Positions 1,831-62,568 are shown, counted from the first letter of the stretch. The stretch: DNA of 64,000 bases from an uncultured Dehalococcoidales bacterium (GCA_964413085.1 CAYPRI010000001.1:719-64718), one strand, 5' to 3'. A program made the numbers and translations. The notes: generated from the sequence alone by a model not told the origin.

Positions 1831-3204
1831 ATGAAAGGTAAAGAGACCAAAATTATTTTAACCGAAAAGGAAATGCCAACAACTTGGTACAACGTCCTGC
1901 CGGACCTGCCTAAACCTCTGCCGCCATTGCTACATCCGGGGACAGGCCAGCCTACTCCATTGCCTCCTCCACTCTTCTCCAAAGGTATGCAGGAGCAGGA
2001 GTTCAGCACAGAGCATGATATCGAAATTCCGGATGAGGTGCTGGATATCTACAAACTGTGGAGGCCAACACCAGTAATCCGTGCCTATCGGCTGGAGAAG
2101 GCACTCGATACACCAGCTAAAATCTTCTACAAATATGAAGGCGTCAGCCCAGCCGGCAGCCACAAGCTGAACACGGCTGTGGCCCAGGCTTATTACGCCA
2201 GGCAAGATGGAATTAAGCGCTTTGCCACCGAGACCGGTGCCGGCCAGTGGGGCAGCGCCCTATCAATGGGCTGCGCTTTCTTCGGCTTAGAGTGCAAAGT
2301 CTATATGGTCAGGGTGAGCTACAACCAGAAGCCGTATCGTCGCATTCTGATGGAGACCTGGGGAGCCAAGTGTGTGGCCAGTCCTAGCCAGGATACCCAA
2401 ATAGGGCGCAAAATTCTAGAGGAAGACCCCAACTCACCTGGTAGTCTTGGTATCGCCATCAGCGAGGCAATTGAGGATGCTGGTCCCCGCGATGACACTT
2501 ATTATTCCATAGGCAGCGTCATCAACTCTGTTCTGCTCCATCAAACGATTATCGGCGAAGAAGCTAAAAAGCAGATGGAGAAGGCCGGCCTCTATCCCGA
2601 TATCATCGTAGGCTGTATCGGTGGCGGCAGCAACTTTGCGGGTATGTACCTGCCATTCGTCAAGGATAAAATAACGGGTAAAAAGCCAAACTTGCGCATC
2701 ATCAACGTAGAACCGCAAGCCTGTCCCAGCGTGACTAAAGGTCCTTATACATGGGATTACGGTGATGTAGCTGGAATGGCGCCAATTGCTAAAATGTATA
2801 CGCTAGGCCACACCTTCATACCACCAGGAATCCATGCTGGCGGTCTACGTTACCACGGCATGGCACCGATAATCTGCCATCTTCACAAGCTGGGATTTGT
2901 CGAAGCCAAGGCAGTACCACAGGTGGCAACCTTCCAGGCCGGCGTGCAGTTCGCTAGAACCGAGGGAATCATTCCCGCGCCGGAGCCGAACCACGGCATT
3001 AGAGTAGCCATAGACGAGGCACTGGCCTGCAAGAAGTCCGGAGAATCCAAGACCATACTCATCGCACTCAGCGGGCATGGACACTTCGACCTGGCCGCAT
3101 ACGATGAGTTTCTTAGCGGTAAGCTACAGGACTACGACTATCCTGAGGAGAAGGTGAAAGAGGCTTTAACCCATTTGCCTAAGGTAGAGTACGTAGAGAA
3201 ATAA
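1831..3204 (+). CDS. trpB: Tryptophan synthase beta chain, TrpB2 (long) type.
   Basis: 457 aa. Motifs [60 protein letters not shown] at 1818-1826. Confidence 0.9.
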
Positions 3205-41833: not shown

Positions 41834-42778
41834 ATGGTAGAAGCAATTAAAGTCGCATACGTTTTCCCAGGACAGGAATCCCATTCAGTAGGCATGGGTT
41901 TAGACCTCTACGTACACTATGCTTCCGCCCGTGAAGTTTTTGATGAAGTTGATAAAAGCCTTGGTTTCTCCCTATCTCGACTATGCTTTGAGGGTCCTGA
42001 AGATGACCTTAAGCAGACAATCAATGTTCAACCGGCACTTTTGGCTACCAGTGTAGCCTGTTTGAGGGCAGCGCAAGAGGTGAGTAATAACGGCATACCT
42101 GAGCCAACTTTCGTTGCCGGACACGATGTAGGCATATATGCGGCTTTGGTGGCCTCCGGTGTACTTAACCTGGTTGATGCCGCGAGGTTAATTCGGGAAA
42201 GAGGCAGGTTAATGAACGAGGCCGGGCAGAGAGCAGGCGGGGGGATGGTATCAATGACCGGTCTGGATATAGAGGTCTTCAAGAATATCTGCTTTTCTAC
42301 GGGGGTTGAAATAGCATATATTGACGCCCCTGACCAGGTCACGCTCAGCGGTACACAGGAAAACCTGACAAAAGCCCGGAGATTAGCCCAAATAAAAGGC
42401 GCCCGCCGCATTGTCCCGCTGCGTGTGAACGGTCCCTTTAATTCCATCTTGATGGAGCCAGCTATTGAAAGACTCAGAAATGCCATCTCGGAATTCACCT
42501 TCAATAAGCCAGCTGTTCCCGTTGTGGCCAATGTAACTGCCCAGCCTCTTACCGACCTTGAAGCTATAAAAGAAGAACTAGTCAGTCAGATTGTCCGCCC
42601 TGTTCAATGGCAACAATCCGTTGAGAACATGATAGCCAGAGGTGTCACCACTTTCTTCGAAATGGGGCCAGGTGAGATGCTGACACGGCTGATCAAACGC
42701 ATTAGCCCCGGAGCACAGGCCTTTAACATCAGTAATGCGCAAACGGTAAGTGAAATAACCAGATGGCGAAGAGGTTAA
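41834..42778 (+). CDS. fabD: Malonyl-CoA:ACP transacylase.
   Basis: GHDVG active-site motif and VFPGQESHSVGMG. Confidence 0.85.
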   Translation: MVEAIKVAYVFPGQESHSVGMGLDLYVHYASAREVFDEVDKSLGFSLSRLCFEGPEDDLKQTINVQPALLATSVACLRAAQEVSNNGIPEPTFVAGHDVGIYAALVASGVLNLVDAARLIRERGRLMNEAGQRAGGGMVSMTGLDIEVFKNICFSTGVEIAYIDAPDQVTLSGTQENLTKARRLAQIKGARRIVPLRVNGPFNSILMEPAIERLRNAISEFTFNKPAVPVVANVTAQPLTDLEAIKEELVSQIVRPVQWQQSVENMIARGVTTFFEMGPGEMLTRLIKRISPGAQAFNISNAQTVSEITRWRRG

Positions 42779-42976
42779 GCACTGCGTACCACAATGCGAA
42801 CAGCGCTTGAAGCGACTGATTAGCGCAGATAGCCTATACTGAACCATAGCTTGTCCATCGTCTTGCTACTTGCAGCATTTGACCCGTGGCTTTATTATTA
42901 GTTTAGTACCCTTAAGTCAATATCAGGTTTAACCCCAAAGTTCTATTAACAGACTGACGCTAACACGAGCATTATA

Positions 42977-43429
42977 ATGGTTGGAATTAGACGGAAGGCT
43001 AGAATTATTGCATTGCAGGCTCTTTATGAACTCGACTGTTCATCTCATCAACCAGATGAGGCACTGGCGCGCTTGCTTGATGAGAAACCTCTTCCCGACG
43101 ACGCAGCAGCATTCGCCAGAAGCCTGATGAACGGAGTCTTGAAGAACAGAAAAGATATCGATGATATTATTCGAAGATTCGCTCCGGCTTTCCCAGTCGA
43201 GCAAATTGCTTCTATAGACAGGAATATCCTCCGCCTTGCCATTTTTGAGATTTTATTCGATAATAGAGTTCCAGTGAAAGCAGCTATTAATGAAGCGGTT
43301 GAACTCGCTAAAAGCTTCGGCAGTGACACTTCTCAAAGATTTGTAAACGGCGTTTTGGGTTCTGTGGCTTCAAATTATGTTGACCAAGCAAGACAACAGC
43401 AATCTGCTGAAAAATCTAAACCAGCGTAG
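42977..43429 (+). CDS. nusB: Transcription antitermination factor NusB.
   Basis: ARIIALQALYEL...DRNILRLAIFEI. Confidence 0.8.
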   Translation: MVGIRRKARIIALQALYELDCSSHQPDEALARLLDEKPLPDDAAAFARSLMNGVLKNRKDIDDIIRRFAPAFPVEQIASIDRNILRLAIFEILFDNRVPVKAAINEAVELAKSFGSDTSQRFVNGVLGSVASNYVDQARQQQSAEKSKPA

Positions 43430-47217: not shown

Positions 47218-48099
47218 ATGGCATACAGAAAACTACTTGTTCCCCTTGATGGTTCTGAACTTGCGGAAAGGGCTATTCCGTACGCTAAGGCAATTGCCCA
47301 GGTAAGGGACAGTGAAGTCATACTCTTCACTTCGAGTATCGCTTCCGCTGAGCAGTTAGACCGGCCCATGAAGGCTTACCTGGAGCTGAAGACAAAAGAA
47401 CTGCGATCCCAAGGCATCAAAGCATCGTCCGCAGTAGCCTATGGAATTGTGGCGGATTCAATCGTCAATTTCGCCGACAAGAACAAAATTGACCTTATAA
47501 TTATTTCGACTCATGGATACTCCGGAATAAAGCGATGGGTTTTGGGGAGCGTCGCCAGAAAGGTGCTTTATGGCACCAGCGTTCAGGTCCTGCTAATAAA
47601 ATCTAAGGCGCCGCAGGTGTCTGAGGTAACGCTTGGGAAAATATTACTTCCTCTGGACGGCTCACCTTTCTCTGAAAGCCCCATATACTTCATCAAGCAG
47701 CTCACGAAAGGCACTGATGCCGAGATTTTTTTAACTCTGGTGTGCGAGCCTCCTTTAGTACCTTCCTATGGAGACCATCCAATCAATCCGACGTGGGAAA
47801 AACATAGGGATGCCGTGTGGGCGGAAGAAAAACAGCAGGCTTCGGAATATTTAGAAAAGATGGAAGCAAAACTTCGAAAAGATGGAATGAAGGTCAAGTC
47901 GCGAGTCATTCCCGGTGAACTTGGGCGCGTAGCTGAGGCAATTTTACGGGAAGGCCAAAAAGAAACTATAGATTTAATAACTATGGCAACGCACGGCCGC
48001 TCTGCGGTCAGCCGATGGGTCTATGGGGGTACAGCTAATCGAATTGTGGAGCAATCGCTTCAACCGGTCTTACTTATCCGCCCAGCGGTGCCAAAATAG
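47218..48099 (+). CDS. Tandem universal stress protein (two UspA domains).
   Basis: Two USP repeats, each ending in a G-rich ATP-binding loop (THGYSGIKRWVLGSVA / THGRSAVSRWVYGGTA). Confidence 0.8.
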   Translation: MAYRKLLVPLDGSELAERAIPYAKAIAQVRDSEVILFTSSIASAEQLDRPMKAYLELKTKELRSQGIKASSAVAYGIVADSIVNFADKNKIDLIIISTHGYSGIKRWVLGSVARKVLYGTSVQVLLIKSKAPQVSEVTLGKILLPLDGSPFSESPIYFIKQLTKGTDAEIFLTLVCEPPLVPSYGDHPINPTWEKHRDAVWAEEKQQASEYLEKMEAKLRKDGMKVKSRVIPGELGRVAEAILREGQKETIDLITMATHGRSAVSRWVYGGTANRIVEQSLQPVLLIRPAVPK

Positions 48100-48138: not shown

Positions 48139-49710
48139 TCATATAGCCGGTGCCTCAATGGTTACTATTGTGCCCTTGTCAGGCCCGGAGTTCACCTTCA
48201 ATTTGCCACCTATTAACTGGACCCGTTCTTGCATTCCAGCTAAACCCAACCTACCCTGTTTGACCAAGTCGCCAGTTGTCTCTGGAATACAAAATCCCTT
48301 TCCGTCGTCTCTAATAGTTATTCTAATCAACTCTTCACTGAATTCGACAGCAACTTCGGCATTAGTCGCCCTGGAATGCCTTAAGGTATTCATTAAGGAC
48401 TCTTGAGCGATACGGAAAAGGCATAGTTCTACCTCGGGAGAAAATCGTCGACTAACACCTCGCATTGTTACCTCAATATTAATCTTTGAGCGCCTGCTGA
48501 GATCTGAAGCAAGCCATTCCAGTGCCGGTAACAAGCCAAGCCGGTCTAATGTTGGGGGCCGCAGATCCTGGCTCAGTCGTCTTACGTTTGCCATAATGTC
48601 ATCAGCTTGTTTACGTAAATTATCAAGCAGGCGCCTCTTGTCAAACGGCAGATCGCCACTAACTGAAATAATGTCATCCAGCTGCCGAGCCAGTACAACT
48701 AACGACTGAATCGTCTCATCATGAAGCTCGCGTGCAATACGTTTGCGTTCTTCTTCCTGAGCCAATGTAATTTGGCCAAGGTAAAAACGTAAGCTTTCCT
48801 GCATATGCTTCTCTTCCGTAACATCTCTGGCAATATGTTGAAATCCGACAGCTTTGCCGTTAACCTCCACTACATCTGTGGTCAATTTTAGAATCGCTTC
48901 AACCCTGTCCTTAGTAATTAACCTCTGCTCATAAGGTTGCGAGACAGCTCTTTTGTTTAGAAGTCGGTTTCGTATTTCCTTCGCCAGGTGTAAGCTATCC
49001 TCGGACAGAAAGGATTTAACGTTCATTCGGCATAATTCTTCCACTTCATAGCCTGTAAGTTTGGAGGCAGCAATATTGGCGGAACTGATATTTCCATCCA
49101 TATCATGCACCCATATCGCGTCATGGGCATTCTGAAATAAAGTCCGATACCTCTTTTCAGATAGACGCAATTTCGATACGTTTTTCCGCTCTACATCGTA
49201 CAGAATTGCATTCTCAATCGCTATGCCAATTTGATTCCCCAGGTTACATAGCAGCTCGATATCATCTTGGTTAAATCGGCGCCGATTATGCGTGGCAACA
49301 CAAAGAGCCCCTGTTACCTTTCGGTTAGCTTTCAGCGGTACTAAAACCAGGGACTGTAATCCTTCGTTTTCAAATGCCATTTTGGGCAGGTTAACGTTAT
49401 TCGAGCTGTCTTCAACAATTCCGGAGAGTCCAGCTTCAGTAACCGGTTGTCTTATATCCTCCAACTTAATATCTCCAACACTGTCCACAAATGATTTCGT
49501 AACTCCTCTGTGGGCACGAAGAGCAAGGTGGCCAATCTCTTGACTAGGAAGGAAAATTAGAGCAGCATCGACATCCATTATCTCTGAGACATTGTCAACA
49601 CTGCTGCTTAGAATGTGTTTTAACTCAAGGGACTGTGAGATGGTGCTTGAGATACGTCCCAAGCTTTCCAGTTGAAGAAAATGACTGCTTTCCCGTTTAG
49701 ATAGTCTCAA
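48139..49710 (-). CDS. Sensor histidine kinase (GAF-PAS-GAF sensor, HisKA_3/NarL-type transmitter).
   Basis: H-box ARELHDETIQSL followed by HATPase_c. Confidence 0.8.
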   Translation of the reverse strand: MRLSKRESSHFLQLESLGRISSTISQSLELKHILSSSVDNVSEIMDVDAALIFLPSQEIGHLALRAHRGVTKSFVDSVGDIKLEDIRQPVTEAGLSGIVEDSSNNVNLPKMAFENEGLQSLVLVPLKANRKVTGALCVATHNRRRFNQDDIELLCNLGNQIGIAIENAILYDVERKNVSKLRLSEKRYRTLFQNAHDAIWVHDMDGNISSANIAASKLTGYEVEELCRMNVKSFLSEDSLHLAKEIRNRLLNKRAVSQPYEQRLITKDRVEAILKLTTDVVEVNGKAVGFQHIARDVTEEKHMQESLRFYLGQITLAQEEERKRIARELHDETIQSLVVLARQLDDIISVSGDLPFDKRRLLDNLRKQADDIMANVRRLSQDLRPPTLDRLGLLPALEWLASDLSRRSKINIEVTMRGVSRRFSPEVELCLFRIAQESLMNTLRHSRATNAEVAVEFSEELIRITIRDDGKGFCIPETTGDLVKQGRLGLAGMQERVQLIGGKLKVNSGPDKGTIVTIEAPAI

Positions 49711-49792: not shown

Positions 49793-50458
49793 TCAAGACA
49801 TATTATCGAGAGTGACCCAACCTTCTTTTAGAGCATGTACCACAGCCTCGGTCCTAGAGCTTACCCTGAGTTTATTAAATATGTTCGCCAGGTGTCCCTG
49901 GATAGTGCGCACGCTTAAACAAAGACCGTCGGCAATGTCTTTATTGCTCAAACCCTTGGTTACCATTCTTAATACTTCCATTTCTCGTTCAGTAAGCAGG
50001 TCTAATGACTTCTTATCGCGCTGCTTGCCAGAAACACCAGCAAATCGATTTAAAACCTTGCGAGCTACCGAAGGATGAAGCACCGACTCTCCGGCATGAA
50101 CTGCTCTAATAGCATCGACTATCTCTAGGCCACGGACACTCTTCAATAGGTATCCTGCAGCACCTGCTTCCAACAGGCCGAATATAAATTGGTCATCATC
50201 ATAGGCACTCAATACTAGTACCGCTACGGCAGGACATTGGGCCTTTATACGCCGGGTGGCTTCAATACCATCCAATCGAGGCATGGCCACATCCACCAGC
50301 ACTACATCCGGCTTTAAATCACAGGAAAGTTTCACTGCTTCCTCACCATCGCCAGCCTCCGCCACTACCTCTAAATCAGGTTCTTGTTCTAATATTCGAC
50401 GTGTTCCCTCACGTACGAATGCGTGATCGTCTGCTATCAATATCCTGATGTTGTCCAT
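49793..50458 (-). CDS. NarL/LuxR-family response regulator.
   Basis: REC domain (ILIADDH) and a C-terminal LuxR HTH. Start at MDNIRIL (50458) rather than the longer track ORF at 50554. Confidence 0.8.
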   Translation of the reverse strand: MDNIRILIADDHAFVREGTRRILEQEPDLEVVAEAGDGEEAVKLSCDLKPDVVLVDVAMPRLDGIEATRRIKAQCPAVAVLVLSAYDDDQFIFGLLEAGAAGYLLKSVRGLEIVDAIRAVHAGESVLHPSVARKVLNRFAGVSGKQRDKKSLDLLTEREMEVLRMVTKGLSNKDIADGLCLSVRTIQGHLANIFNKLRVSSRTEAVVHALKEGWVTLDNMS

Positions 50459-50811
50459 ACAGTCGATTCTACCGAGGCTCATTATAGCAGAATTGCCCAT
50501 AAAAGCAGTAAAAATTGGATTCATGGTAGGCATAATTACGTGCTCCAGCTTCACTCGCTAAGCTTTAACTACAAAATAAAATAAGCATTGTAACGGACGT
50601 TAATAGCCTCTTACGTATGTTACACTTACGCTGGGGGAAAATAAGGCAGTTCCACACATAGGGTGAATCCACCTGAGTGTGAGTCATCCTTTTATTTGCT
50701 CAATGGCAGGAAACAGGATTCTAAGCCTAAAAACCAGAGAAAAATAGACCTTTTGTTCATTTTATATAAAATACTAAAAGCAGTATAATTTGCGGCGAAA
50801 GTAGGTGCAGG

Positions 50812-51390
50812 ATGGAAATAAAGGTACACGGCAGCAACGACTTCATCCAAGAAATCTCTTCCATGCCCGGCGGCGAAAAAATAAACCTTTGTATCCAATG
50901 CGGTACCTGTTCGGCATCGTGTCCTAATGCCAATAAAATGGACTACACTCCCCGCGCGTTAATTGCCATGGCACGAGCTGGCATGAGAGACGAGGTCCTA
51001 TCCAGCAACTCCATGTGGCTATGCTTATCCTGTTACATGTGCACCGTGCGCTGCCCCAGAGGCATCGTGCCGACATATATTATGCATGCCCTAGAAAATT
51101 TGGCCATGCGTCATCACGCAACCAGCCCAAAAACACGCACTCCCACACTATATAAGGTGTTCAGCAATACTGTATACAATGTGGGGCATATACCGCGATT
51201 CGGCTGCATGGGCCGGTTTTATCTCAGGGTAAATCCATTTGGCGCATTGAAAAACATCCCAGTGGCACTATCACTGTTCAAGCACGGGCGTATGCCTATT
51301 AATATGCGTAGGAAATTAAAGCCCGAGGCACTAAGTCAGTTTAAAGCTATTTTGGACAAAGCCACGATGCTGGAGGAACATCCCAAATAG
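50812..51390 (+). CDS. hdrC: Heterodisulfide reductase subunit C-like (2x[4Fe-4S]).
   Basis: CIQCGTCSASCP and CLSCYMCTVRCP. Confidence 0.8.
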   Translation: MEIKVHGSNDFIQEISSMPGGEKINLCIQCGTCSASCPNANKMDYTPRALIAMARAGMRDEVLSSNSMWLCLSCYMCTVRCPRGIVPTYIMHALENLAMRHHATSPKTRTPTLYKVFSNTVYNVGHIPRFGCMGRFYLRVNPFGALKNIPVALSLFKHGRMPINMRRKLKPEALSQFKAILDKATMLEEHPK

Positions 51391-51464
51391 AAGTAGCTGA
51401 AAATATATATAGAATGTCGAATGTAAACAAATGAAGATATGGCTAGCTCATCGGGAGGCAAGTA

Positions 51465-52343
51465 ATGAAATATTATAGTTATTTCCCAGGCTGCTGTATG
51501 TATGAAGATAGTCAGGCATATGACCTGTCGGCGCGAGCCGTTTCTAAGCTCCTAGACATCGAGCTTATCGAGCTTGAGGACTGGAATTGCTGCGGTTCTA
51601 CCCCTTATACAGTTGTTGACGAACTGTCTGCTTTTTGTTGCTGTGCCCGAAACTTGGCATTAGCTGAAAAACGAGGGCTTGATTTGGTGGCAGCCTGTAG
51701 CGATTGCTATCTCATACTCAGCCGGACAAATCAACACTTTAAGGAATATCCCGAGGTAAAGAAAAAACTAAGCGAGTCTCTGGCTGCAGGTGGGCTGGAG
51801 TATAACGGCACAATTAAAGTGCGACATATACTAGATGTCTTTGCCAACGATGTGAGCAGTGAAGATATCAAAGCCACGGTCAAAGTTGACCTTGGCAGCC
51901 TGAAAGTTGCTCCCTATTATGGCTGTCAGGCAGTGAGGCCGACACCGAACTTCGATGACCCCGAATATCCTGAGTCAATGGACAGGATGGTGGTAAGCAT
52001 CGGAGCCCAGGTTGTGCCGTATCCGCTCAAAACCCGCTGCTGTGGCGGTTCCCTAATTTTATCTGAACAAGATGTTGCTTTAGGACTTATATATAAACTT
52101 CTAGATAACGCTATAAGCAACGGAGCAGATTGCATTGTTACCGTGTGCCCATTTTGTCACCTAAATTTAGATGCCTACCAGAGTGTGGTGAACAAAAAGT
52201 ACAAAACTAACTTCAATATACCGATTCTATTCTTTACACAACTGATGGGAATGGCTTTTGGCATTGAGAGTAAAGCGCTGGGTTTACGAGAAAATATTGT
52301 TCCTATAGGTAAAACATTAGCGAGATACATAACCCAACAATAA
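51465..52343 (+). CDS. hdrB: Heterodisulfide reductase subunit B-like (two CCG domains).
   Basis: CCG motifs (WNCCGS, TRCCGGS). Confidence 0.8.
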
Positions 52344-52353
52344 GGAGGAGCGA

Positions 52354-54315
52354 ATGGAACCAAAAATAGGTGTTTATATATGTCACTGCGGTGCCAATAT
52401 CGCTGCCACGGTCAACGTCGAGCAGGTAACCGAGTTTGCTAAAGGGCTGCCTTCTGTAGCTGTTGCCCGGGACTACAAGTTTGTTTGCTCAGATCCCGGC
52501 CAAGAACTTATAAAGAAAGATATCAAAGAACTGGGCATTGACCGCGTTGTGGTGGCCTCATGCTCGCCTCGATTGCATGAGCAAACCTTCAGGCGAACTC
52601 TAGTCAGTGCCGGCTTAAATCCTTATCTATTCGAGATGGCAAATATACGTGAACATTGCTCGTGGGTACATGAGGATCAAGGCAAAGCTACTGACAAAGC
52701 TAAGGCACTTGTAAGCGCTGCAGTACGACGCGTTTTCTACCACCTACCGTTGGAAACCAAAGAGGTTCCATTTAATCCTAACACACTCGTTGTGGGTGGC
52801 GGTATTGCCGGCATACAGGCGGCACTTGAAATCGCAGACTCAGGTCACAAAGTCTATCTGGTAGAGAGGGAGCCATCAATCGGCGGCCACATGGCCCAAT
52901 TGGATAAAACCTTTCCAACATTAGATTGTTCCGCCTGAATACTGACACCGAAGATGGCCTCGGTGAGGTCACACGAAAACATCGAGATGATGACTTATAG
53001 CGAAGTCATCGGTGTTTCGGGGTATGTAGGCAACTTCAAGGTTAAAATCAGGAAAAAACCGCGCTTTGTGGATGCAGCTAAGTGTACCGGTTGCGGCACC
53101 TGCCAAGATAAATGTCCCATCAAAACGGACAGCGAATTTGATTTTGGCGTCGGTAAAAGGAAGGCAATCTACACACCTTTCCCCCAGGCAGTGCCAAACG
53201 TACCCGTCATAGACAAAGAACGATGCACCTATTTCCTTAAGGGCAAATGCCGTGCCTGCGAGAAATTGTGTGAGGCTAAAGCAATAGATTTCGAGCAGAC
53301 AGAAAAAATGGTAGATTTGGATGTAGGTTCCATTATAGTAGCCACCGGTTTCGATTCCTTTGACCCGTCTCCTATGTCACAATTCGGATATGGTAGATAT
53401 GATAATGTGATTACGGGCTTTCAGTTCGAGAGAATGAGCAGCGCTTCAGGGCCAACCAGCGGCAAAATACTATTGAAAGATGGTTCCCAGCCACGAAGCG
53501 TAGCCATCCTGCACTGTATCGGCAGCCGCGACCTCAACTACCACGAATATTGTTCCCGAGTATGCTGCATGTACTCCCTGAAGTTCTCTCACTTGATACG
53601 AGAAAAAATTCCGGAAGCTGAAATATATCAGCTTTACATCGACCTGCGCTGCTTCGGTAAGGGATATGAGGAATTCTATAATCGTCTCCAAGAAGAAGGG
53701 GTCAACTTCATACGTGGGCGTGCAGGAGAGATTACAAATGTCGCCGAAACACCTGAAGAGCAAGGCAGACTGGTCGTGGTTTGTGAAGATACCTTAATAG
53801 GACGGCAGAGACGCCTGCCGGTGGATTTAGTAGTTCTTAGCACAGCGCTGGAGCCCAGGGCTGATGCCGCTGAAACAGCCAAGCTATTCTCAATTAGCCG
53901 TAGCCGTGACGGTTTCTTCATGGAAAAGCATCCCAAGCTTGACCCCGTTGCCACAACCACAGATGGTATTTTTGTTGCCGGCTGCAGCCAGGGACCAAAG
54001 GATATACCTGATACGGTGGCTCAGGCATCGGCAGCTGCAGCTCGCGTCATGGCTATGATAAGCAAGGGCCATGTGGAAATTGAGGCAGCAACAGCGGTAA
54101 TCGATGAAGAGCTCTGCTCCGGATGCAAGACATGTATTTCACTTTGTCCTTACACGGCCATATCCTTTGATGAAGAAAAGAAGATATCTTCTATCAATGA
54201 GGCCCTGTGTAAGGGTTGTGGAACCTGTGCTGCAGCCTGCCCAAGCGGAGCAATTACCAGCCGACATTTTACCGTCGAACAAATCATGGCAGAGCTAGAA
54301 GGAGTGATGGTATGA
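52354..54315 (+). CDS. hdrA: Heterodisulfide reductase subunit A-like FAD/Fe-S protein, selenocysteine-containing; UGA at 52936-52938 read as Sec.
   Basis: Track ORFs 52354-52938 and 52954-54315 are in the same frame and together align end-to-end with the 670-aa Cys paralog at 56081-58093. The UGA aligns with Cys in the paralog (TLDCSA[U/C]ILTPKM). Confidence 0.8.
52946..52965 (+). promoter_or_regulatory. Candidate bacterial SECIS hairpin for hdrA (CACCGAAG-AUGG-CCUCGGUG).
   Basis: Starts 8 nt after the UGA. 8-bp stem with one mismatch, extendable by UGA/UCA outer pairs. Absent from the Cys paralog at the equivalent position. Confidence 0.5.
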
Positions 54316-54719
54316 GCTACGAGCCCAAAATAATAGGATTCCTATGCAACTGGTGTTCATATGCCGCAGCCGATCTGGCGGGTACTTCCAGGAAAAAATA
54401 CGCGCCTAACGTACGAGTAATTCGTGTCATGTGCAGCGGCCGGGTGGAGCCTACGTTCATCCTCAAGGCCTTTCAGTTGGGGGCTGATGGAGTTCTGGTC
54501 TGTGGCTGACATCCCGGTGAGTGCCATTACCTGGAAGGTAATGTAAAAGCAGCCCGGAGAATTCCTTTACTGAAAAAAATGCTCTCACAGTTCGGCATAG
54601 AGGAAGAGCGTCTCAAACTGGACTGGGTCTCTGCCTCAGAAGGTGAACGCTTTGCTTCTATTATTAATGATATGACTGAACAAATGAGAAAGCTCGGACC
54701 TTTCAACCAAAATAGCTGA
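54312..54719 (+). CDS. mvhD: MvhD/VhuD-like hydrogenase delta subunit ([2Fe-2S]), selenocysteine-containing; UGA at 54507-54509 read as Sec.
   Basis: ATG 54312 overlaps the hdrA stop codon (ATGA). The reading frame continues through the UGA to a stop at 54717-54719. It aligns over its whole length with the Cys paralog at 58090-58518 (LVCG[U]HPGECHY vs LILG[C]HPGDCHY). Confidence 0.75.
54525..54543 (+). promoter_or_regulatory. Candidate bacterial SECIS hairpin for mvhD (CAUUACC-UGGAA-GGUAAUG).
   Basis: Perfect 7-bp stem with a 5-nt loop containing GG, 15 nt downstream of the UGA. The Cys paralog encodes the same peptide (CHYVEGNY) with synonymous codons that cannot form the hairpin. Confidence 0.55.
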
Positions 54720-54932
54720 CATTTCCTATCGGCGCTCAATTTGTAATAATTCTCTTCGTGCTAAAAGCATTACTTGTAATCTTCTGAGTATGTATACTAG
54801 AAGGCATCAAGTATAATTACCTGAAATCTGTCATTTATCCCCGTAAAATACTCAATAATAATCTTGCATAGAATAGCCTTTTTATAGTATCATTGTGCGG
54901 TTTAGCTAAAATCTGTAGAAAGGAAGATTTAT

Positions 54933-56081
54933 ATGGAAGTATTCACCCCTCTTAAAGAAACCACAGAAATCCTATTAGGCAACGGTGGTAATCCACTTGA
55001 ATCGTGTTATCAGTGTGGTATATGTACAGGAGTCTGCCCTTGGAACCGGTTGGTAAGTTTCCCGGTACGTAAGTTGATTCATAAAAGTCAACTCGGGGTA
55101 GTCGACTTTGAGAACGAAGAGGTCTGGCAATGCGTGGGCTGTAACGCCTGTGTCGACCGATGTCCTCGTGGAGTGGAAATACCTCATATCATGCGATCTA
55201 TCCGCCGCGTTATCATGGAACTGGGTGCCGGCATCGTGCCGCACTCGCTGAGGGTAACGGAAAAGAACATCTCTGCCGTTGGTAATCCGCTAGGTGAACC
55301 ACCGGAAAGACGCATGGACTGGGCAAAAGACCTCGGAGTGAAAACATTCACAAAGGGAACAGAGTTACTATACTTCCCCTGCTGCTACCAGACTTACGAT
55401 CCTCCCACTAAAAAAACTGCTGTCGCTACTGTAAATATCCTGAAAAAGGCAAATGTGGACTTCGGCATTCCGGATAATAACGTGGTCTGCTGCGGAGAGA
55501 GCATACGAAAAGCAGGTTCCGAAAGCCTTTTTCAACGTCTGGCCAGAACCAACATCGATATCTTTTCTGAACTCGGCGTTAAAAAAATACTGGTAACCTC
55601 ACCCCACTGTTATCACACCTTCAAAGATGAATATCCCGAACTCGGAGCCAATTACGAGGTGATACATCTATCCCAATATATAGCTGAACTTATAAAAGAT
55701 GGCAGGCTAAAACCAACCAAGGAATTCAAACAGAAAGTAACCTATCACGATTCCTGTTGTCTGGGGCGTTACCAGGGGATCTACGATGAACACAGACAGA
55801 TATTAAACAGCATTCCCGGTCTCGAGTTTGTTGAGATGCCAGACAACCGTGAATATTCGCTCTGTTGTGGTGGGTGCGCCGGCAGACTATGGATGGAAAC
55901 AAAGAAGGGAGAACGGCTGTCCGAGCTCAGACTTGAGCAGGTACTTGATGTAGGAGCAAATACACTGGCCGTAAGCTGCCCTTATTGTATGGCCAATTTC
56001 AACGATGGCGTGCTGTCGATGGGTAAGACTGAGGATATAGAGGTCAAGGATATTTCAGAACTTGTTTCGGAGGCACTATAA
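54933..56081 (+). CDS. HdrD/GlcF-like Fe-S oxidoreductase (fused HdrC plus HdrB-type domains).
   Basis: N-terminal 2x[4Fe-4S] (CYQCGICTGVCP, CVGCNACVDRCP) and two CCG domains (CCGES, CCGGC). Confidence 0.75.
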   Translation: MEVFTPLKETTEILLGNGGNPLESCYQCGICTGVCPWNRLVSFPVRKLIHKSQLGVVDFENEEVWQCVGCNACVDRCPRGVEIPHIMRSIRRVIMELGAGIVPHSLRVTEKNISAVGNPLGEPPERRMDWAKDLGVKTFTKGTELLYFPCCYQTYDPPTKKTAVATVNILKKANVDFGIPDNNVVCCGESIRKAGSESLFQRLARTNIDIFSELGVKKILVTSPHCYHTFKDEYPELGANYEVIHLSQYIAELIKDGRLKPTKEFKQKVTYHDSCCLGRYQGIYDEHRQILNSIPGLEFVEMPDNREYSLCCGGCAGRLWMETKKGERLSELRLEQVLDVGANTLAVSCPYCMANFNDGVLSMGKTEDIEVKDISELVSEAL

Positions 56082-58093
56082 TGGCACAAAAAAAGGCTGC
56101 TAAAAAGGCAACACAAAAAGTAGTGCTTAAGGATACGGAGCCCAAAATAGGTGTCTATGTCTGTCACTGCGGGTCCAATATCGCTGGCACCGTTGATGTC
56201 CCGCAAGTAGTAGAGTTTGTTAAAGGGCTGCCAGCGGTAGTGGTTGCCCGTGAATATAAATTTATGTGCTCAGACCCGGGACAGAGCATGATTAAAGACG
56301 ATATCAAGAATTTAAAGCTTAACCGAGTTGTAGTAGCTTCTTGTTCTCCACTACTGCACGAACCTACGTTTCGCCGCGCTGTCCAGGAAGCTGGCATTAA
56401 TCCTTACCTGTTCGAGATGGCAAACATCAGAGAGCACTGTGCTTGGACCACAGAGGACCATGGAGAGGCCACAGAAAAAGCTAAAGCCCTGGTAAGTGCT
56501 GCCGTAAAGCGAGTCTATTATCATCAGCCGCTTGAGACAAGAGAAGTACCGGTTAACGCCAATACCTTAATCGTCGGTGGTGGTATCGCCGGTATTCAGG
56601 CGGCTTTAGAGATTGCTGATGCGGGGCACAAAGTCTACCTCGTTGAACGGGAGCCAAGCATCGGCGGGCACATGATTCAATTCGACAAAACCTTCCCCAC
56701 CTTAGACTGCTCGGCCTGCATTCTCACACCTAAAATGACCTCGGCAGGATCACACCCTAACATCGAATTGATGACCTACAGTGAAGTCGAAGAAATCTCC
56801 GGTTTTATCGGCAACTTCAAAGCCAGGATTCGAAAGAAAGCACGCTTTGTAGACGAGTCTAAATGCAACGGATGTGGCATGTGCATCGAGAAATGCCCAT
56901 GGAAAGCAGATAGCGAGTTTGACCTTGGCTTAAGCCAGCGTAAAGCCATTTACACCCCATTCGCACAAGCAGTACCTAATATTCCTGTCATAGACAAGGA
57001 AAGCTGCGCCTATTTCCTCAAAGGTAAATGCCGCGCTTGCGAAAAGTTCTGCGAGAGAGAAGCTATCGATTTCGAGCAGCAAGATAAAGTTGTTGAAGTG
57101 GATGTGGGTAATATAATTCTCACCACAGGCTATGACCCGTTCGACCCGACTCCGATGGTAAAGTACGGCTATGGTAAATTCCCAAATGTTGTTACCGGGC
57201 TCGAATTCGAGAGAATCTGTAACTCGGTTGGACCGACGGGCGGCAAAATTGTCCTCAAAGACGGTTCCGAGCCGAAGAGCATCGCTATAATACATTGCGT
57301 CGGTAGCCGTGATGAAAATTACCACGAATACTGTTCTCGAGTCTGCTGCATGTATGCTCTCAAATATTCCCACCTAATTAAAGAAAAGACCAAGGCAGAT
57401 GTCTATCAGATGTACATTGATATGCGCTGCTTTGGCAAAGGTTATGAGGAATTCTATAAGAGGCTTTGTAAAGAAGGTGTTACTTTTATTAGAGGCAAAC
57501 CGGCTGAAGTCACAGACAGGGCCATAAACGACGAGGAAAAAGGGAAATTGATTGTCGTTGGCGAGGACAGCCTACTCGGAAATGTTATCCGCGTTCCGGT
57601 AGACATGGTCGTCCTCTGCATAGGTCTGGAAGCTCGTGCTGACGCTAAACAGGTTGCTCAAAAATTTGGCATCAGCCAGGGCGCCGACGGTTTCTTTATC
57701 GAGAGACATCCTAAATTGGACCCTGTAGCAACCATGACTGAAGGAGTCTTCATCGCAGGCTGCTGTCAGGGACCAAAGGATATACCTGACACGGTGGTGC
57801 AGGCATCAGCGGCTGCAACCCGTGTCTTGGCTACAATCAACAAAGGGAACGTTGAGCTGGAAGCAGCCGTGGCTGTTATCAACGAAGAAAAATGCTCAGG
57901 CTGTCGTATTTGTAACATGCTTTGCCCTTACAATGCCATTTCGTTCATCGAAGAGGAAGAGGTTTCGCGAATCAATGAGGCATTGTGCAAAGGTTGCGGG
58001 ACATGCGTTGCCGCCTGCCCCAGTGCAGCCATAACACACAAGCATTTCACAACTGAAGAGATAATCGCAGAAATAGAGGGGGTACTGGTATGA
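56081..58093 (+). CDS. hdrA: Heterodisulfide reductase subunit A-like FAD/Fe-S protein, cysteine paralog.
   Basis: 670 aa paralogous to 52354-54315 throughout; Cys at the Sec-aligned position. Confidence 0.85.
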
Positions 58094-58518
58094 AAGACTT
58101 CGAACCTATAATCGTAGGCTTCTGTTGCAATTGGTGTTCCTACAGGGGTGCTGATTTGGCCGGCACAGCCAGGATGAAATGCTCGCCAAACGTCCGTATT
58201 ATCAGGGTAATGTGCAGTGGCCGGGTAGAACCTACATTCGTGGCCAAAGCCTTCGAACTCGGAGCCGACGGCGTCTTGATTTTGGGGTGCCATCCAGGTG
58301 ATTGCCATTACGTGGAGGGCAACTATAAGACAATGCGGCGTATGCCCCTCTTAAAGAAGATGCTACAGCAACTTGGCATCGAAGAAGAACGAGTTCGACT
58401 GGACTGGGTATCGGCTTCTGAAGGCGACAAATTCGTATCCGTAGTAGATGATATGACAGAAAAGGTCAGAGCTCTGGGACCGCTTAATAAGAACTCCAAG
58501 GAGGCGAAACATGGCTAA
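58090..58518 (+). CDS. mvhD: MvhD-like hydrogenase delta subunit, cysteine paralog.
   Basis: 142 aa; ATGA overlap with the hdrA stop, the same architecture as the Sec copy. Confidence 0.8.
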
Positions 58519-59470
58519 ACTTAAATTAGCGCTGTACTGGGCATCAAGTTGCGGCGGCTGTGAAATCGCCCAGCTTCAGATTGGCGACAAAATCCTAAAG
58601 CTGGCCGAGGTTGCAGATATCGTATTCTGGCCGGTAGCCATCGATGCCAAATACAAGGATGTCGAAGCCATGCCAGCAAAGAGTATAGACGTCTGCCTGT
58701 TCAATGGAGCTGTTAGAACATCAGAACAGGAGCATATGGCTAAGATGCTCCGTGAAAAGTCAAAGGTAATGATTGCCTATGGTGCCTGCGCCTATGGGGG
58801 AGGTATTCCTGGTCTGGGCAACATGTTCAACCGCCAGTTGATTTTCGAACGAGCTTACCTAGAAACGCAATCAACAGATAATAAAGACAAGGTCTTACCA
58901 CAAACAAAATACAAGGTTCCGGAAGGCGAACTTACTATTCCAGAATTCTATGACACGGTAAAAACTCTGGCGCAGACAGTGGACGTAGATTATACAGTCC
59001 CCGGTTGTCCTCCGGAAGCCAGAACAACCTGGCTTGCCTTAGAAGCGCTTATATCGGGCAAATTACCGCCCAAGGGCACCGTGATTACGCACAATACTAA
59101 GGCGGTATGTGATGATTGTCCGCGTAAGAGAGACGTGAAAAAGGTTAAAAAGTTCTACCGGACTTTCGAGAAGGTTCCCGAACCGGAAATATGCCTTCTG
59201 GAGCAGGGTTTCCTGTGCGCCGGCATCGCCACCCGCGGCGGCTGTGAGGCACCGTGTCCCCAGGCCAATATGCCATGCACCGGCTGTTACGGCCCTGTGG
59301 ACGGAGTAGTAGATCAGGGCGCTCACTTCCTAAGCGCAGTGGCCTCTGTGATTGATTCAAATGACCCCGAGGAAATACAGAGAATTATAGATGGTATACG
59401 AGACCCGGTAGGTACATTCTACCGCTACAGTCTGCCTGATTCGCTACTAAGGAGGGCGAGAATAAAATGA
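58511..59470 (+). CDS. mvhG: [NiFe] hydrogenase small subunit (MvhG/VhuG-type, cytoplasmic, no Tat signal).
   Basis: N-terminal [12 protein letters not shown]. Confidence 0.85.
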
Positions 59471-60927
59471 AAAGGATAACAATTGATCCCATAACCAGGC
59501 TGGAAGGCCACGGTAAGATAGAGATCTTCCTTAATGATGCCGGTGAGGTCAAAAACAGCTATTTTCAAGTCCCTGAACTGAGGGGCTTTGAAAAGTTCTC
59601 TGAAGGACGTCTGGCCGAGGATATGCCCCAGATTACACAGAGAATCTGCGGCGTATGTCCTGAAGCTCACCACATGGCATCAACTAAATGTTTAGATGAC
59701 CTTTTCCACGTTGACCCGCCAAGCCCCGCTAAAAAGCTTCGCGAGCTCTTCTATAGCACTTTCTATGTTACGGACCATACCACTCATTTCTATATACTAG
59801 CCGGCCCCGATTTCGTCATGGGGCCGGATGCTCCCGTGGCCGAGCGAAATATTCTGGGAGTAATTGCTAAAGTCGGCTTAGAATTAGGCGGAGCTGTTAT
59901 CAACACCCGAATGAAAAATCACCATATCATACATATGCTTGGTGGCAGAGCCGTGCATCCTGTATTCGGTCTGCCCGGTGGAGTCAGCAAGGGACTTAAC
60001 GAAGATGAGAGAAAAGAAGTCGAGCAGATAGCTAAGGACTCCATTGAATTTGCCAAGCTATCTTTGAAAGTATTCGACGATATCGTCCTCAAGAACAAAG
60101 CATACGTCGATATGATTGTCAGCGACGCTTTCACACACCGCACTTATTACATGGGTCTGGTTGACGATAAAAACAGGGTTAACTTCTATGACGGCAAGGT
60201 CCGAGTGGTGGACCCCGACGGAAAGGAATTTGCTAAGTACGCACCGAGAGAATACCTCAACAACGTCGCCGAACATGTTGAGCCCTGGAGCTACATGAAA
60301 TTCCCCTTCCTCAAGAATGTCGGCTGGAAAGGATTTGTCGACGGCAAAGATAGCGGCGTTTTCAGAGCAACCCCTCTATCAAGGCTCAATGCTTCCGATG
60401 GTATGGCAACACCATTAGCCCAAGAAGCTTACGAGAAGTTCTACTCTACATTGGGCGGTAAGCCGGTGCATCATACCCTGGCTACTCACTGGGCTCGCCT
60501 TGTCGAGCTCCTCTATGCTGCCGAAAGATTACTGGAGCTGAGTAAGGACCCTGAGATAACTAGCCCAAACATCCGCACTATCCCCACAGCCAAGCCGGAT
60601 GAAGGTGTAGGCATTGTTGAAGCGCCCAGAGGTACTCTAACGCATCATTACATCACCGATGAGAACGGTATTATCAAGAAAGCTAACCTAATCGTGGCTA
60701 CAGTGAACAACGCTGCAGCAGTAAATATGTCAGTCAATAAAGCAGCAAGGGCACTTATTCAACCGGGTAAGGAAATCACCGAAGGACTTCTTAATCGCAT
60801 AGAAATGGCGTGGCGACCCTATGACCTTTGCCTTGCCTGCGCTACGCATACGCTACCGGGTCAAGCACCGATGGAAGTGGTCATATACAATAGCAAGAGG
60901 GAGATAATAAAAAGGCTCAAACGCTAA
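59467..60927 (+). CDS. mvhA: [NiFe] hydrogenase large subunit (MvhA-type).
   Basis: N-terminal RICGVCPEAHH and C-terminal DLCLACATH Ni-binding motifs, both with Cys, so this is a NiFe rather than a NiFeSe enzyme. Confidence 0.85.
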   Translation: MKRITIDPITRLEGHGKIEIFLNDAGEVKNSYFQVPELRGFEKFSEGRLAEDMPQITQRICGVCPEAHHMASTKCLDDLFHVDPPSPAKKLRELFYSTFYVTDHTTHFYILAGPDFVMGPDAPVAERNILGVIAKVGLELGGAVINTRMKNHHIIHMLGGRAVHPVFGLPGGVSKGLNEDERKEVEQIAKDSIEFAKLSLKVFDDIVLKNKAYVDMIVSDAFTHRTYYMGLVDDKNRVNFYDGKVRVVDPDGKEFAKYAPREYLNNVAEHVEPWSYMKFPFLKNVGWKGFVDGKDSGVFRATPLSRLNASDGMATPLAQEAYEKFYSTLGGKPVHHTLATHWARLVELLYAAERLLELSKDPEITSPNIRTIPTAKPDEGVGIVEAPRGTLTHHYITDENGIIKKANLIVATVNNAAAVNMSVNKAARALIQPGKEITEGLLNRIEMAWRPYDLCLACATHTLPGQAPMEVVIYNSKREIIKRLKR

Positions 60928-60933
60928 TTTGCG

Positions 60934-61425
60934 TTGACAGCAATAAGGGAGTTTTCTCACAAGGCTAGTAGTACGAAAACACTGATTTTAGGACTGGGAA
61001 ACACACTTCTTTGCGATGACGGGGTTGGACTCTACGTTGCCGCTAAACTAAGAGAAAAGATAAACCAACCCAATATAACAATTATTGAGACCGGCGTTGC
61101 CGGTCTCAGTCTTTTAGACCTCCTAGTTGGATATGATAAAGCTATTATCGTTGACGCTATTCAAACTGAGGGCGGGAAAATAGGTCAGATATACAGGTTA
61201 GCCCCGGAAGCTTTCAACACAGCCGTACGAACGGCATCTGCTCATGGAATCGACTTCCCCACTGCCCTGGAGTTCGGGAAAAAACTGGGCCTTCACTTGC
61301 CTCAGCAAATAACAATCTTCGCCATTGAAGTATCCGATATAACTACTTTCCGGGAAGAATGTACACCTGAAGTGCAGAAAGCTATTCCTAAATGTGTCGA
61401 AATGATACTAAAAGAGCTAAATTAA
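60934..61425 (+). CDS. Hydrogenase maturation endopeptidase (HycI/FrhD-like).
   Basis: LILGLGNTLLCDDGVGLYVA. Confidence 0.75.
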   Translation: MTAIREFSHKASSTKTLILGLGNTLLCDDGVGLYVAAKLREKINQPNITIIETGVAGLSLLDLLVGYDKAIIVDAIQTEGGKIGQIYRLAPEAFNTAVRTASAHGIDFPTALEFGKKLGLHLPQQITIFAIEVSDITTFREECTPEVQKAIPKCVEMILKELN

Positions 61426-61536: not shown

Positions 61537-62568
61537 CTATTTGGAGTCTTCTGGCCAAGCCTTTTCACCGATTGCAATACGACACAGGTCGGTAATGAAT
61601 ATCTTTGGCAGGCCGAACTGCGCACTGGGACGGCGGAGCACTCGGTCACATATGGGACAGGAAGTTATGATGGCATCAGCACCGCAGGCGATGGCATCCT
61701 CGAAATTCTTCTTCTGTATATCAACGGCAAGCTCTCTGTTAATGTAAATAATAGGGGCAGAGCAGCAGAGAGCGTTCAATCGTTCGTATTGCCTGGGTGG
61801 CCGTTCCACGCCGACAAGCTGGAAGATCTCTTCCAAGAAGATATCATATTCATGCATCCATCTGGTGGCACAATTCGCCTGGTAAGCGATCTTCTTATTA
61901 AGTTTGGTGACCCTGTCTTTATGGTCTCTTAAATAGTTGCGCAGATATTCGAAAAGGTGCATGTATTTGAAGTCAACTTTGAACCCGCACTCCTTAGCTT
62001 TGACCGCTGGCAGGACAAAACCCTCATTATGTATGAAAACGATGTCCTTACCCAATTTAGCCAGATTGGCAAGAATACGCTGGCCATACCTTTTTACGAA
62101 GCTTTCCCCGCCCATGTGTACATTGCCGGCGAGGTTTGCGTATGGGTAGCCTTTAATCACCGTCATACCCTTGAATAGCTGGCTGTCGAGTGTGCCTTCG
62201 GGGAACTGTTCGAATTGGAAGGAGTCGAACGACAGCACCGGCTTATCAGGGTCGCCTAGTATCACCTGCCCGGAGTCTCCATTTCCTTCAAGTGCCGTGG
62301 TCAACGCCTCAATCACTGATTTGCCGACTGTCACTATGGGGGCAGTGCCTGTCTTCTCCTGCATCTGGAATATTAGATTAGCAGGGTCGGCGCCGGTAGG
62401 GCAGTAGTCGATACACGCGATGCATGTAGTACATTTGCTCAGTATTTCGGCATCCTTGCCCTCCATTAGCAGCTTAATCTCAGCTACAGCCTTATCCTTG
62501 TCATAATTTACATAGCGGCATTTCACCAGGCAGTCGCCGCACAGGTTACACTTTGAAGCATCCCACAT
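61537..62568 (-). CDS. Fe-S oxidoreductase with N-terminal 2x[4Fe-4S] and two CCG domains (HdrD/GlpC/LutA-like).
   Basis: CNLCGDCLVKC, CTTCIACIDYCP and CCSAP / CPICD motifs. Confidence 0.7.
   Translation of the reverse strand: MWDASKCNLCGDCLVKCRYVNYDKDKAVAEIKLLMEGKDAEILSKCTTCIACIDYCPTGADPANLIFQMQEKTGTAPIVTVGKSVIEALTTALEGNGDSGQVILGDPDKPVLSFDSFQFEQFPEGTLDSQLFKGMTVIKGYPYANLAGNVHMGGESFVKRYGQRILANLAKLGKDIVFIHNEGFVLPAVKAKECGFKVDFKYMHLFEYLRNYLRDHKDRVTKLNKKIAYQANCATRWMHEYDIFLEEIFQLVGVERPPRQYERLNALCCSAPIIYINRELAVDIQKKNFEDAIACGADAIITSCPICDRVLRRPSAQFGLPKIFITDLCRIAIGEKAWPEDSK

Follow-up and report, generated by a model that had tools for sequence, protein, structure and literature searches.

Does a selenocysteine (Sec) form of an enzyme module, encoded directly beside a cysteine (Cys) form, represent one of two interchangeable isoforms, or do the two modules belong to different complexes? 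The question is raised by a stretch of 64,000 nucleotides from an uncultured Dehalococcoidales bacterium (GCA_964413085.1, CAYPRI010000001.1, positions 719-64718), called the window below, in which ten consecutive plus-strand genes (50812-61425) make up two modules of Hdr/Mvh type by Pfam and NCBIfam. In module 1, hdrA and mvhD each carry a single in-frame TGA codon. A first-pass annotation of the window proposed selenium-dependent isoform switching of a flavin-based electron-bifurcating complex. The reading that we favour, with confidence a little better than even, is of two Hdr-Mvh-type modules that have different acceptor subunits and one common hydrogenase, module 1 being selenium-dependent and module 2 not.

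Results

Two adjacent modules with different acceptor subunits

The order of module 1 is hdrC-hdrB-hdrA-mvhD, without a hydrogenase; that of module 2 is hdrD-like-hdrA-mvhD-mvhG-mvhA-hycI, all in Cys form and including the only hydrogenase of the locus. Module 1 begins with hdrC (50812-51390), encoding a 4Fe-4S dicluster subunit (Pfam Fer4_8 and others; NCBIfam CoB_CoM_SS_C at 91.6 bits, below cut-off), and hdrB (51465-52343), encoding a protein with two CCG domains (Pfam CCG, twice; NCBIfam CoB_CoM_SS_B at 213 bits against a cut-off of 345). The hdrA gene that follows (52354-54315, 653 codons) has Sec195 in the motif C192-x-x-U195, and Pfam confirms for its product the expected architecture of an N-terminal Fe-S region, an FAD/thioredoxin-reductase-like domain, and inserted and C-terminal ferredoxin domains. 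The mvhD gene (54312-54719, 135 codons) has Sec66 and terminates at an ordinary TGA stop.

A spacer of 213 nt (54720-54932) separates the modules. Module 2 opens with the hdrD-like gene (54933-56081), whose product fuses a ferredoxin to two CCG domains (Pfam Fer4_8 plus two CCG), followed by the Cys forms of hdrA (56081-58093) and mvhD (58090-58518), with TGC at 56717-56719 and 58288-58290, respectively. The Cys HdrA scores 855 bits to NCBIfam HdrA2 (NF040770), below the cut-off of 1100, and by that score is not an equivalog of methanogen HdrA2. Next are mvhG (58511-59470), the [NiFe] hydrogenase small subunit (Pfam Oxidored_q6; NCBIfam VhuG at 240 bits, below cut-off), mvhA (59467-60927), the large subunit (Pfam NiFeSe_Hases; NCBIfam VhuA at 399 bits, below the equivalog cut-off), and a gene for a HycI-type hydrogenase maturation protease (60934-61425; Pfam HycI). 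Both Ni-binding motifs of MvhA, the N-terminal RICGVCPEAHH and the C-terminal DLCLACATH, are all-Cys. The two motifs, the small subunit, the adjoining mvhD and hdrA and the protease together identify a group 3c [NiFe] hydrogenase (Mvh/Vhu type). Both MvhD copies have the FlpD/MvhD domain (PF02662), with its Cys ligands, at 190 and 194 bits against a cut-off of 22.3. HdrA matches PDB 5odc_A over its N-terminal 315 residues with E 2.6e-126, and MvhD matches 5odc_D with E 2e-50.

The HdrA paralogues are 71% identical and the MvhD paralogues 72% identical. The first-pass description of the two clusters as paralogous gene for gene holds for these two genes and fails for all others, where HdrC and HdrB stand against an HdrD-like protein and there is one hydrogenase. 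The HdrD-like protein resembles HdrB in the CCG motifs alone and is 32% identical to HdrC over 90 amino acids (aa). Its best NCBIfam matches are TfrB, LdhH, TmcB, GlpC and DsrK, all below cut-off. Judged by these comparisons, the acceptor-side subunits are deeply different, and the modules are not isoforms of one complex.

Two side observations concern proteins of this acceptor type. Related loci, numbered with the prefix L, carry HdrD-like proteins of two classes, either 57-68% or 80-93% identical to that of the window (L003, L083, L084, L086, L087, L091, L137 and L145 versus L004, L006, L051, L060, L089 and L140), while the adjacent Cys HdrA is 89-94% identical, a pattern suggesting that the HdrD-like subunit has been replaced like a cassette or has evolved much faster. 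A third protein with ferredoxin and CCG regions (343 aa, 61537-62568, minus strand), whose gene is convergent with those of the hydrogenase, has just 22% identity to the HdrD-like one. No homologue of it was detected in the other genome-derived loci; the exact protein occurs on contigs L167-L169, from three other samples.

In-frame TGA codons at conserved Cys positions

The TGA of hdrA is at 52936-52938 (plus strand, context DCSA*ILTPKM) and that of mvhD at 54507-54509 (plus strand, context VCG*HPGECHY). In both pairs the aligned codon of the downstream paralogue is TGC, so that the contrast of TGA with a Cys codon at the critical positions, as first described, is borne out by translation and codon alignment. 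The aligned position is Cys in 67 HdrA and 61 MvhD homologues.

Both TGA codons recur in L001 (JGI 3300025136) and L002 (ENA ERZ27245470), contigs from other samples that are 99.99% identical to the window, and a third other-sample assembly, L167 (JGI 3300022556), has the locus with identical split gene calls. The hdrA TGA is kept in 14 genome-derived and 16 metagenome-derived orthologues, the mvhD TGA in a similar number. Alignments of the orthologues read through the TGA, covering residues 1-653 of HdrA, with 78-93% protein identity on both sides. Identical codons in independent assemblies and in about 30 orthologues make chance, or the assembly error that the first-pass annotation had allowed for, very unlikely. 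Its forecast of mis-annotation proves accurate: gene callers split both genes, HdrA into 194 and 453 aa and MvhD into 65 and 46 aa. TGA is the ordinary stop of 13 of the 47 long open reading frames (ORFs) in the window, mvhD included, and recoding of UGA as Gly or Trp under an alternative genetic code is therefore ruled out.

Residue U195 of HdrA aligns with Sec197 (residue X197) of Methanococcus maripaludis HdrA in PDB 9sfi_A, DCSAU against DCAMX, and is the second position of the C-x-x-C/U pair beside FAD, the position that marks the HdrA selenoprotein family. Two Sec residues have been reported in archaeal VhuD; the window MvhD has one only, within GUHPGECHY. In archaea and bacteria alike, HdrA (C-x-x-U) and MvhD/VhuD count among the catalogued selenoprotein families (PMC13188914). 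In M. maripaludis HdrA the bifurcating FAD and a [4Fe-4S] cluster flank the Cys-Sec pair, whose role is described as unresolved (PMC13518236).

Conserved hairpins downstream of both codons

RNAalifold consensus folding predicts a hairpin of common geometry after each UGA: following an interval of 16 nt, a stem of 7 bp closes a GGN triloop, and the loop begins 23 nt after the UGA. The Sec insertion sequence (SECIS) predicted for hdrA is UGGCCUC-GGU-GAGGUCA (52955-52971, plus strand), and that for mvhD is AUUACCU-GGA-AGGUAAU (54526-54542, plus strand), each with 7 pairs. Both have the form of the bacterial SECIS (bSECIS) model, a stem-loop shortly 3' of the UGA whose first two loop bases include a G (PMC13188914, PMC13582414). 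All 7 pairs are kept in 14/14 sequences for hdrA and in 14-15 of 15 for mvhD; apart from L084, where a G.U pair of the hdrA hairpin is changed to A-U, the hairpins are essentially invariant across about 30 orthologues.

Several measures separate the TGA-bearing genes from their Cys homologues. The energy of the hairpin at its fixed position is -8.0 kcal/mol for hdrA versus a median of +5.9 in the 67 Cys homologues, and -4.5 kcal/mol for mvhD versus a median of +3.1 in the 61. Entropy at third codon positions has its gene-wide minimum on the hairpin in both genes. For HdrA (n=23) it falls to 0.25 bits, the gene mean being 1.19, and for MvhD (n=29) to 0.42 bits, the mean being 1.18; the Cys paralogues show no dip at that position. 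Of 35 in-frame TGA codons flanked by open frames in the window, these two alone are followed by the hairpin. Rfam, at gathering and at permissive thresholds, gives no match to a SECIS model, a result of little weight since bacterial SECIS elements are poorly covered there. Folding of single sequences gives weak z-scores (-1.6 and -2.3), with comparable folding in the Cys mvhD region, so these scores are not taken as evidence. An earlier candidate for the hdrA SECIS, CACCGA...UCGGUG at 10 nt after the UGA, was rejected; it is broken at synonymous sites in orthologues (CCG to CCU, CCA or CCC) and overlaps the invariant hairpin.

With a conserved frame, TGA codons kept in about 30 orthologues and dedicated hairpins, module 1 hdrA and mvhD are, as far as sequence can tell, true selenoprotein genes and not pseudogenes, as the first-pass annotation had held.

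Locus layouts among relatives

The best genome matches, at 78-91% HdrA identity, are metagenome-assembled genomes (MAGs) labelled Dehalococcoidales, Dehalococcoidia or Chloroflexi, the exception being a short contig binned as Planctomycetota. An origin in Deltaproteobacteria, which the literature had led us to expect, is rejected on these matches. Isolate names of the related MAGs refer to deep anoxic lake and Black Sea water. Four layouts are seen. Layout A, the tandem arrangement of the window, occurs in five other GTDB species (L003, L004, L006, L051, L060) and in nine metagenome contigs (L083, L084, L086, L087, L089, L091, L137, L140, L145). Its module 1 is invariably Sec and its module 2 invariably Cys, and the Mfd-USP-kinase-regulator genes lie upstream in every contig that reaches that far. 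Across the tandem loci HdrA(Sec) is 86-93% identical and HdrA(Cys) 89-94%. Both modules are evidently maintained by purifying selection in at least 15 loci.

In layout B, hdrCBA(Sec)-mvhD(Sec) is joined directly to mvhG-mvhA-hycI with no Cys module at the locus (L007-L013, L092, L094, L113). Layout C has hdrCBA with Cys (L014, L016, L019, L022, L024, L058, L095-L100). Layout D consists of hdrD-hdrA(Cys) units, among them arrays of at least three all-Cys hdrA/mvhD modules in L025, L109-L111 and L114; since all-Cys tandem arrays exist, tandem paralogy needs no Sec/Cys rationale. Either type of operon can also stand alone, hdrCBA-mvhDGA in L008-L013, L026-27 and L052-54, and hdrD-hdrA-mvhDGA in L028-30 and L120. 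Locus L007 is sister to the tandem clade, and its Sec module lies directly 5' of an mvhGA pair 88% identical to that of the window. An origin of L007 by recombination between two mvhD paralogues was considered and is ruled out, its MvhD being of Sec type over the full length. Separately, we note that the all-Cys arrays include HdrD-like genes, and that those of L109 (7820-19950) and L111 directly follow a FabD-orf150 pair, which in the window is at 41834-43429.

Separate ancestry of the two HdrA copies

A neighbour-joining tree of HdrA with 200 bootstraps places the Sec clade as monophyletic in 175/200 replicates and the tandem Cys clade in 200/200. The Sec clade groups in 173/200 with Cys-type, hdrCB-linked HdrA proteins of other Dehalococcoidia (L014/L016), to the exclusion of the Cys copy beside it, and the two window copies appear as exclusive sisters in 1/200. 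Because of these supports, 173/200 versus 1/200, we read the Sec and Cys hdrA genes as two older paralogous lineages set side by side, the first tied to HdrBC and the second to an HdrD-like protein, not as a local Sec/Cys duplication.

Predicted promoters and upstream regulators

A sigma-70-like promoter of module 2, P2, is predicted in the spacer (CTTGCA(T)-18 nt-TATCAT, 54863-54893, plus strand). Its -35 sequence CTTGCA and its -10 sequence (TGTATCAT, TATTAT or TATAAT) are kept in 15 loci, and the remaining spacer diverges. No terminator-like site was found in the 213-nt spacer from mvhD to hdrD. Given the conserved promoter in the spacer, module 2 can presumably be transcribed on its own, and differential expression is possible. 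Upstream of hdrC, a promoter-like site P1 is predicted (TTTATA-17-TATAAT, 50761-50789, plus strand; 10/12 in a consensus scan), with a -10 element, GTATAAT, that is conserved in the window, L003 and L004.

About 40 nt 5' of the P2 -35 box is a conserved GTAAAATTACCT element, a candidate regulator site with the form (G)TAAAATTACCT(A/G)AAA (54814-54826, plus strand), found in most of the 15 tandem loci. The motif is not enriched elsewhere in the window, with 5 matches versus 4.6 expected, and the sequence upstream of P1 differs. The element (TAATTACCTGAAA; ATTACCTGGAAG in L003) resembles the 5' arm and loop of the mvhD SECIS (ATTACCTGGAAGGTAAT). Three accounts are conceivable: a site for a regulator, a relic of the event that formed the junction, or coincidence.

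Divergent from hdrC are genes for a GAF-PAS-HisKA_3-HATPase sensor histidine kinase (48139-49710, minus strand; Pfam) and a NarL/LuxR-type response regulator (49793-50554, minus strand; Pfam Response_reg and GerE; NCBIfam MadR/NarL-like, below cut-offs). Beyond them is a tandem universal stress protein (USP) gene (47218-48099, plus strand; Pfam Usp in two stretches) that is conserved in close relatives only, being also upstream in L003, L004 and the metagenome loci L084, L086-L088, L090, L091 and L145. The response regulator is 81-92% identical in the tandem loci. The kinase and the LuxR-type regulator had been put forward as candidate regulators of a Sec/Cys switch; that proposal is not upheld, because the orthologous pair lies not only upstream of L007 and L012 but also beside the Cys-only hdrCBA loci L016 and L022. 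The pair looks like a general regulator of hdr operons, by its genomic distribution, and is not specific to a Sec/Cys switch.

Other Sec-type genes and neighbouring features

About 4-5 kb past the right window end, the same contig encodes a peroxiredoxin that has TGA in place of the codon for its peroxidatic Cys (FYPGDFTFV*PTE). It is the third Sec-type gene on this contig, seen as L167 5317-6013 and likewise in L168 and L169, and has a hairpin with a GCAA loop 3' of the TGA. A 1-nt frameshift (CCGGCT, expected VPFPLSDGGGKIG) is present in three assemblies from different samples; because it recurs in all three, the gene may be decaying.

Outside the window, mvhA genes of several related loci (L008 13543, L011 5289, L012 13542, L013 3394, L092, L094) have TGA in the N-terminal motif (CxxU) and an all-Cys C-terminal motif, where the canonical Sec site is the C-terminal UxxC. 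A hairpin, UGGCCU-CGUGUA-AGGCCA, begins 16 nt after this TGA, as in the hdrA and mvhD SECIS elements, and the sister loci L009 and L010 have Cys in mvhA and no such hairpin. The N-terminal CxxU is a rare exception in Groups 1 and 3, recently seen also in Group 4 (PMC13582414), and these genes would be further Group 3 examples.

Elsewhere in the window, a T-box leader (Rfam RF00230, 97.3 bits) at 1449-1707 precedes a gene for a TrpB-like PLP enzyme (1831-3204). To the left of the window (L163 1-9458), genes resemble those for NuoF/HydB, an Fe-S subunit and NfnAB (a pair of 264 and 485 aa), and another encodes a 1723-aa multi-PAS protein. The gene content of this flank fits a metabolism based on ferredoxin and electron bifurcation.

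Discussion

Two proposed complexes fed by one hydrogenase

Under the reading of two modules with different acceptors, UGA195 of hdrA and UGA66 of mvhD would be recoded to Sec by the hairpins 16 nt downstream. Both modules are of the kind that performs flavin-based electron bifurcation, and presumably share that activity. The single MvhGA would feed electrons from H2 into either MvhD/HdrA pair, a role suggested because L007 has its 88% identical mvhGA joined to a Sec module, so that this hydrogenase lineage probably works with Sec HdrA and MvhD. High-potential electrons would then pass to different CCG-type acceptor subunits, HdrBC or HdrD-like, making two non-redundant complexes. When selenium is scarce, the Cys module would incidentally preserve H2-dependent bifurcation, but this would be a side effect and would not explain why the modules are so arranged.

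Several points weigh against this reading. That one hydrogenase serves both modules we infer from gene order. The partner of HdrA, HdrBC or HdrD-like, has been switched among close relatives (L018/L019/L058 versus L017/L020/L021/L023); with such switching, the sequences of the two CCG subunits could understate how far one can stand in for the other, which would favour a backup role for module 2. The HdrA tree is by neighbour-joining only. The scan that found L007-L013 was pattern-seeded, so the lack of a second HdrA there holds for the locus, not the whole genome. Neither hairpin shows compensatory covariation, because the sequences do not vary, and the evidence for them is thus one of constraint. 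Finally, neither the window nor its flanks of roughly 10 kb on each side, which were reached through exact-protein look-ups, contain a selA, selB, selD or tRNA-Sec gene; among all fetched loci, one tRNA-Sec was found, in the Bacillota locus L035. Use of Sec in Dehalococcoidales has been reported (PMC4959059).

Alternative explanations

The strongest competitor, which we hold to be unlikely but serious, is the selenium-dependent isoform switch, in which Cys HdrA and MvhD act as a backup under selenium limitation, controlled by the upstream two-component system or by another factor. Parts of it stand: the Sec genes are real, Cys versions of the same two subunits lie 3.7 kb downstream with TGC for TGA at the key residue, and module 2 has its own conserved promoter with a conserved element upstream. 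Purifying selection acts on the Sec and the Cys set in at least 15 loci, and UGA termination in selenium shortage would automatically leave module 2 alone functional. The Sec/Cys precedent in Methanococcus, Vhu and Vhc, cited in the first-pass annotation, is a real one (PMC13518236, PMC2702500), and the same proposal has been made for Desulfobacterium autotrophicum (PMC2702500). What fails is the premise that the modules are isoforms or local duplicates. The sets are unequal, with HdrBC in one and an unrelated HdrD-like protein in the other and no Sec hydrogenase in the window, and the Cys hdrA does not derive from the Sec hdrA (1/200 bootstraps). Of the features that mark a Methanococcus-type backup, separate transcription of the Cys set is predicted from the promoter kept in 15 loci, while complete, equivalent Sec and Cys sets are not present. 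In relatives such as L007-L013, L092 and L094 no Cys module accompanies the Sec module at this locus, and some of them also have Sec in MvhA; tandem arrays occur that are all-Cys (L025, L109-L111, L114). The kinase/regulator pair stands beside Cys-only loci too. Moreover, if module 1 needs the downstream mvhGA, the module 2 operon cannot simply be off when selenium is plentiful. The separate promoter and the maintenance of both sets are what keep this explanation in contention.

A bolder version of the shared-hydrogenase model, which we put forward tentatively and think improbable, makes selenium a built-in routing switch, with one MvhGA common to the Sec HdrABC-MvhD and the Cys HdrA-HdrD-like-MvhD modules. 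If it is true, H2 electrons could be bifurcated towards two different acceptors when selenium is available; without selenium, module 1 would be lost to UGA termination, perhaps with polar effects on read-through transcripts, and the conserved internal promoter would leave the HdrD-linked route only. Electron flow in a widespread uncultured Dehalococcoidales clade would then be controlled at the level of translation, with no regulator needed.

Less probable again is one asymmetric super-complex, with a heterodimeric HdrA(Sec)/HdrA(Cys) core, HdrBC as one arm, the HdrD-like protein as the other and a single hydrogenase type. In its favour, the ten genes keep their order and occur together in about 15 loci, no terminator-like site was found between the modules, and only one hydrogenase is present; solved MvhADG-HdrABC structures (5odc family) also have HdrA as a dimeric core. 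The conserved internal promoter argues against it, as do the genomes in which each module type stands alone and L007, which manages without module 2.

That the TGA codons are true stops or errors, leaving module 1 hdrA and mvhD as pseudogenes or split genes with truncated products, is very hard to believe: automated gene calls do split both genes, no Sec machinery genes are seen in the window or flanks and the nearby Sec-type peroxiredoxin is frameshifted, but independent assemblies agree on the TGA codons, about 30 lineages keep the frame and 78-93% protein identity on either side of them, the hairpins are conserved at synonymous sites in TGA-bearing genes only, and the codons lie in two established selenoprotein families (PMC13188914), that of hdrA exactly at the known Sec position.

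Comparison with known systems

The closest archaeal parallel to our two-module locus is that of Methanococcus maripaludis and M. voltae (HdrAu-VhuDGAU versus HdrAv-VhcDGA). There, too, HdrA has Sec at the same C-x-x-U site, a Sec homologue of MvhD/VhuD is present, Cys paralogues of both subunits occur in the same genome, the hydrogenase is of group 3c type, and the Cys set has a separate promoter (a predicted one in our case). Unlike Methanococcus, the window host is bacterial (Chloroflexota) and has no CoM/CoB metabolism; HdrA and MvhD alone are duplicated, the hydrogenase is in Cys form only, the Cys set is tied to an HdrD-like protein and not to HdrBC, and the two sets are directly adjacent. 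The SECIS elements lie inside the coding region, as in bacteria, whereas archaeal SECIS elements are in untranslated regions. In the MvhADG-HdrABC complex of Methanothermococcus thermolithotrophicus (PDB 5ODC) the components are HdrA, HdrB, HdrC, MvhD, MvhG and MvhA, all of which are encoded at our locus; that complex, however, is all-Cys and reduces CoM-S-S-CoB, and the window proteins score below the methanogen HdrA/B/C and VhuA/G/D equivalog cut-offs.

Among bacteria, Desulfobacterium autotrophicum HRM2 has Sec forms of HdrA (hdrA1, hdrA2) and MvhD (mvhD1, 2, 3, 5) in its hdrA/hdrL/hdrD-mvhD loci, together with Cys paralogues; these, it was proposed in 2009, take over when selenium is limiting (Strittmatter et al. 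2009; PMC2702500). It shares with the window the order hdrA then mvhD, HdrD-type partners, and Sec genes alongside Cys paralogues. It differs in phylum, and its paralogues are spread over nine loci, in place of a Sec module adjoining a Cys module with a common hydrogenase. The deltaproteobacterial operon frhA/mvhA-mvhD-hdrA-glpC (PMC13188914) likewise clusters Sec HdrA and MvhD with an Fe-S/CCG (GlpC/HdrD-like) protein and a [NiFe] hydrogenase, but Sec in the window is confined to module 1, and both the HdrD-like protein and the large hydrogenase subunit have Cys.

Sec-HdrA, Sec-MvhD and the idea of a selenium backup in bacteria are thus already known, and the locus is no new kind of system. 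What is new is the Dehalococcoidales host, the conserved adjacency of a hydrogenase-less Sec module to a Cys module with the only hydrogenase, and the defined SECIS geometry.

The HdrA and MvhD selenoprotein families are thereby extended to an uncultured Dehalococcoidales clade of anoxic waters and sediments. Because gene calls split the Sec genes, an Hdr-Mvh complex is probably overlooked or wrongly scored when the metabolism of these MAGs is reconstructed. The Sec/Cys tandem with its single hydrogenase offers a compact natural system in which to ask why Sec is kept at the flavin site of HdrA, and what bacterial Hdr-Mvh complexes reduce.

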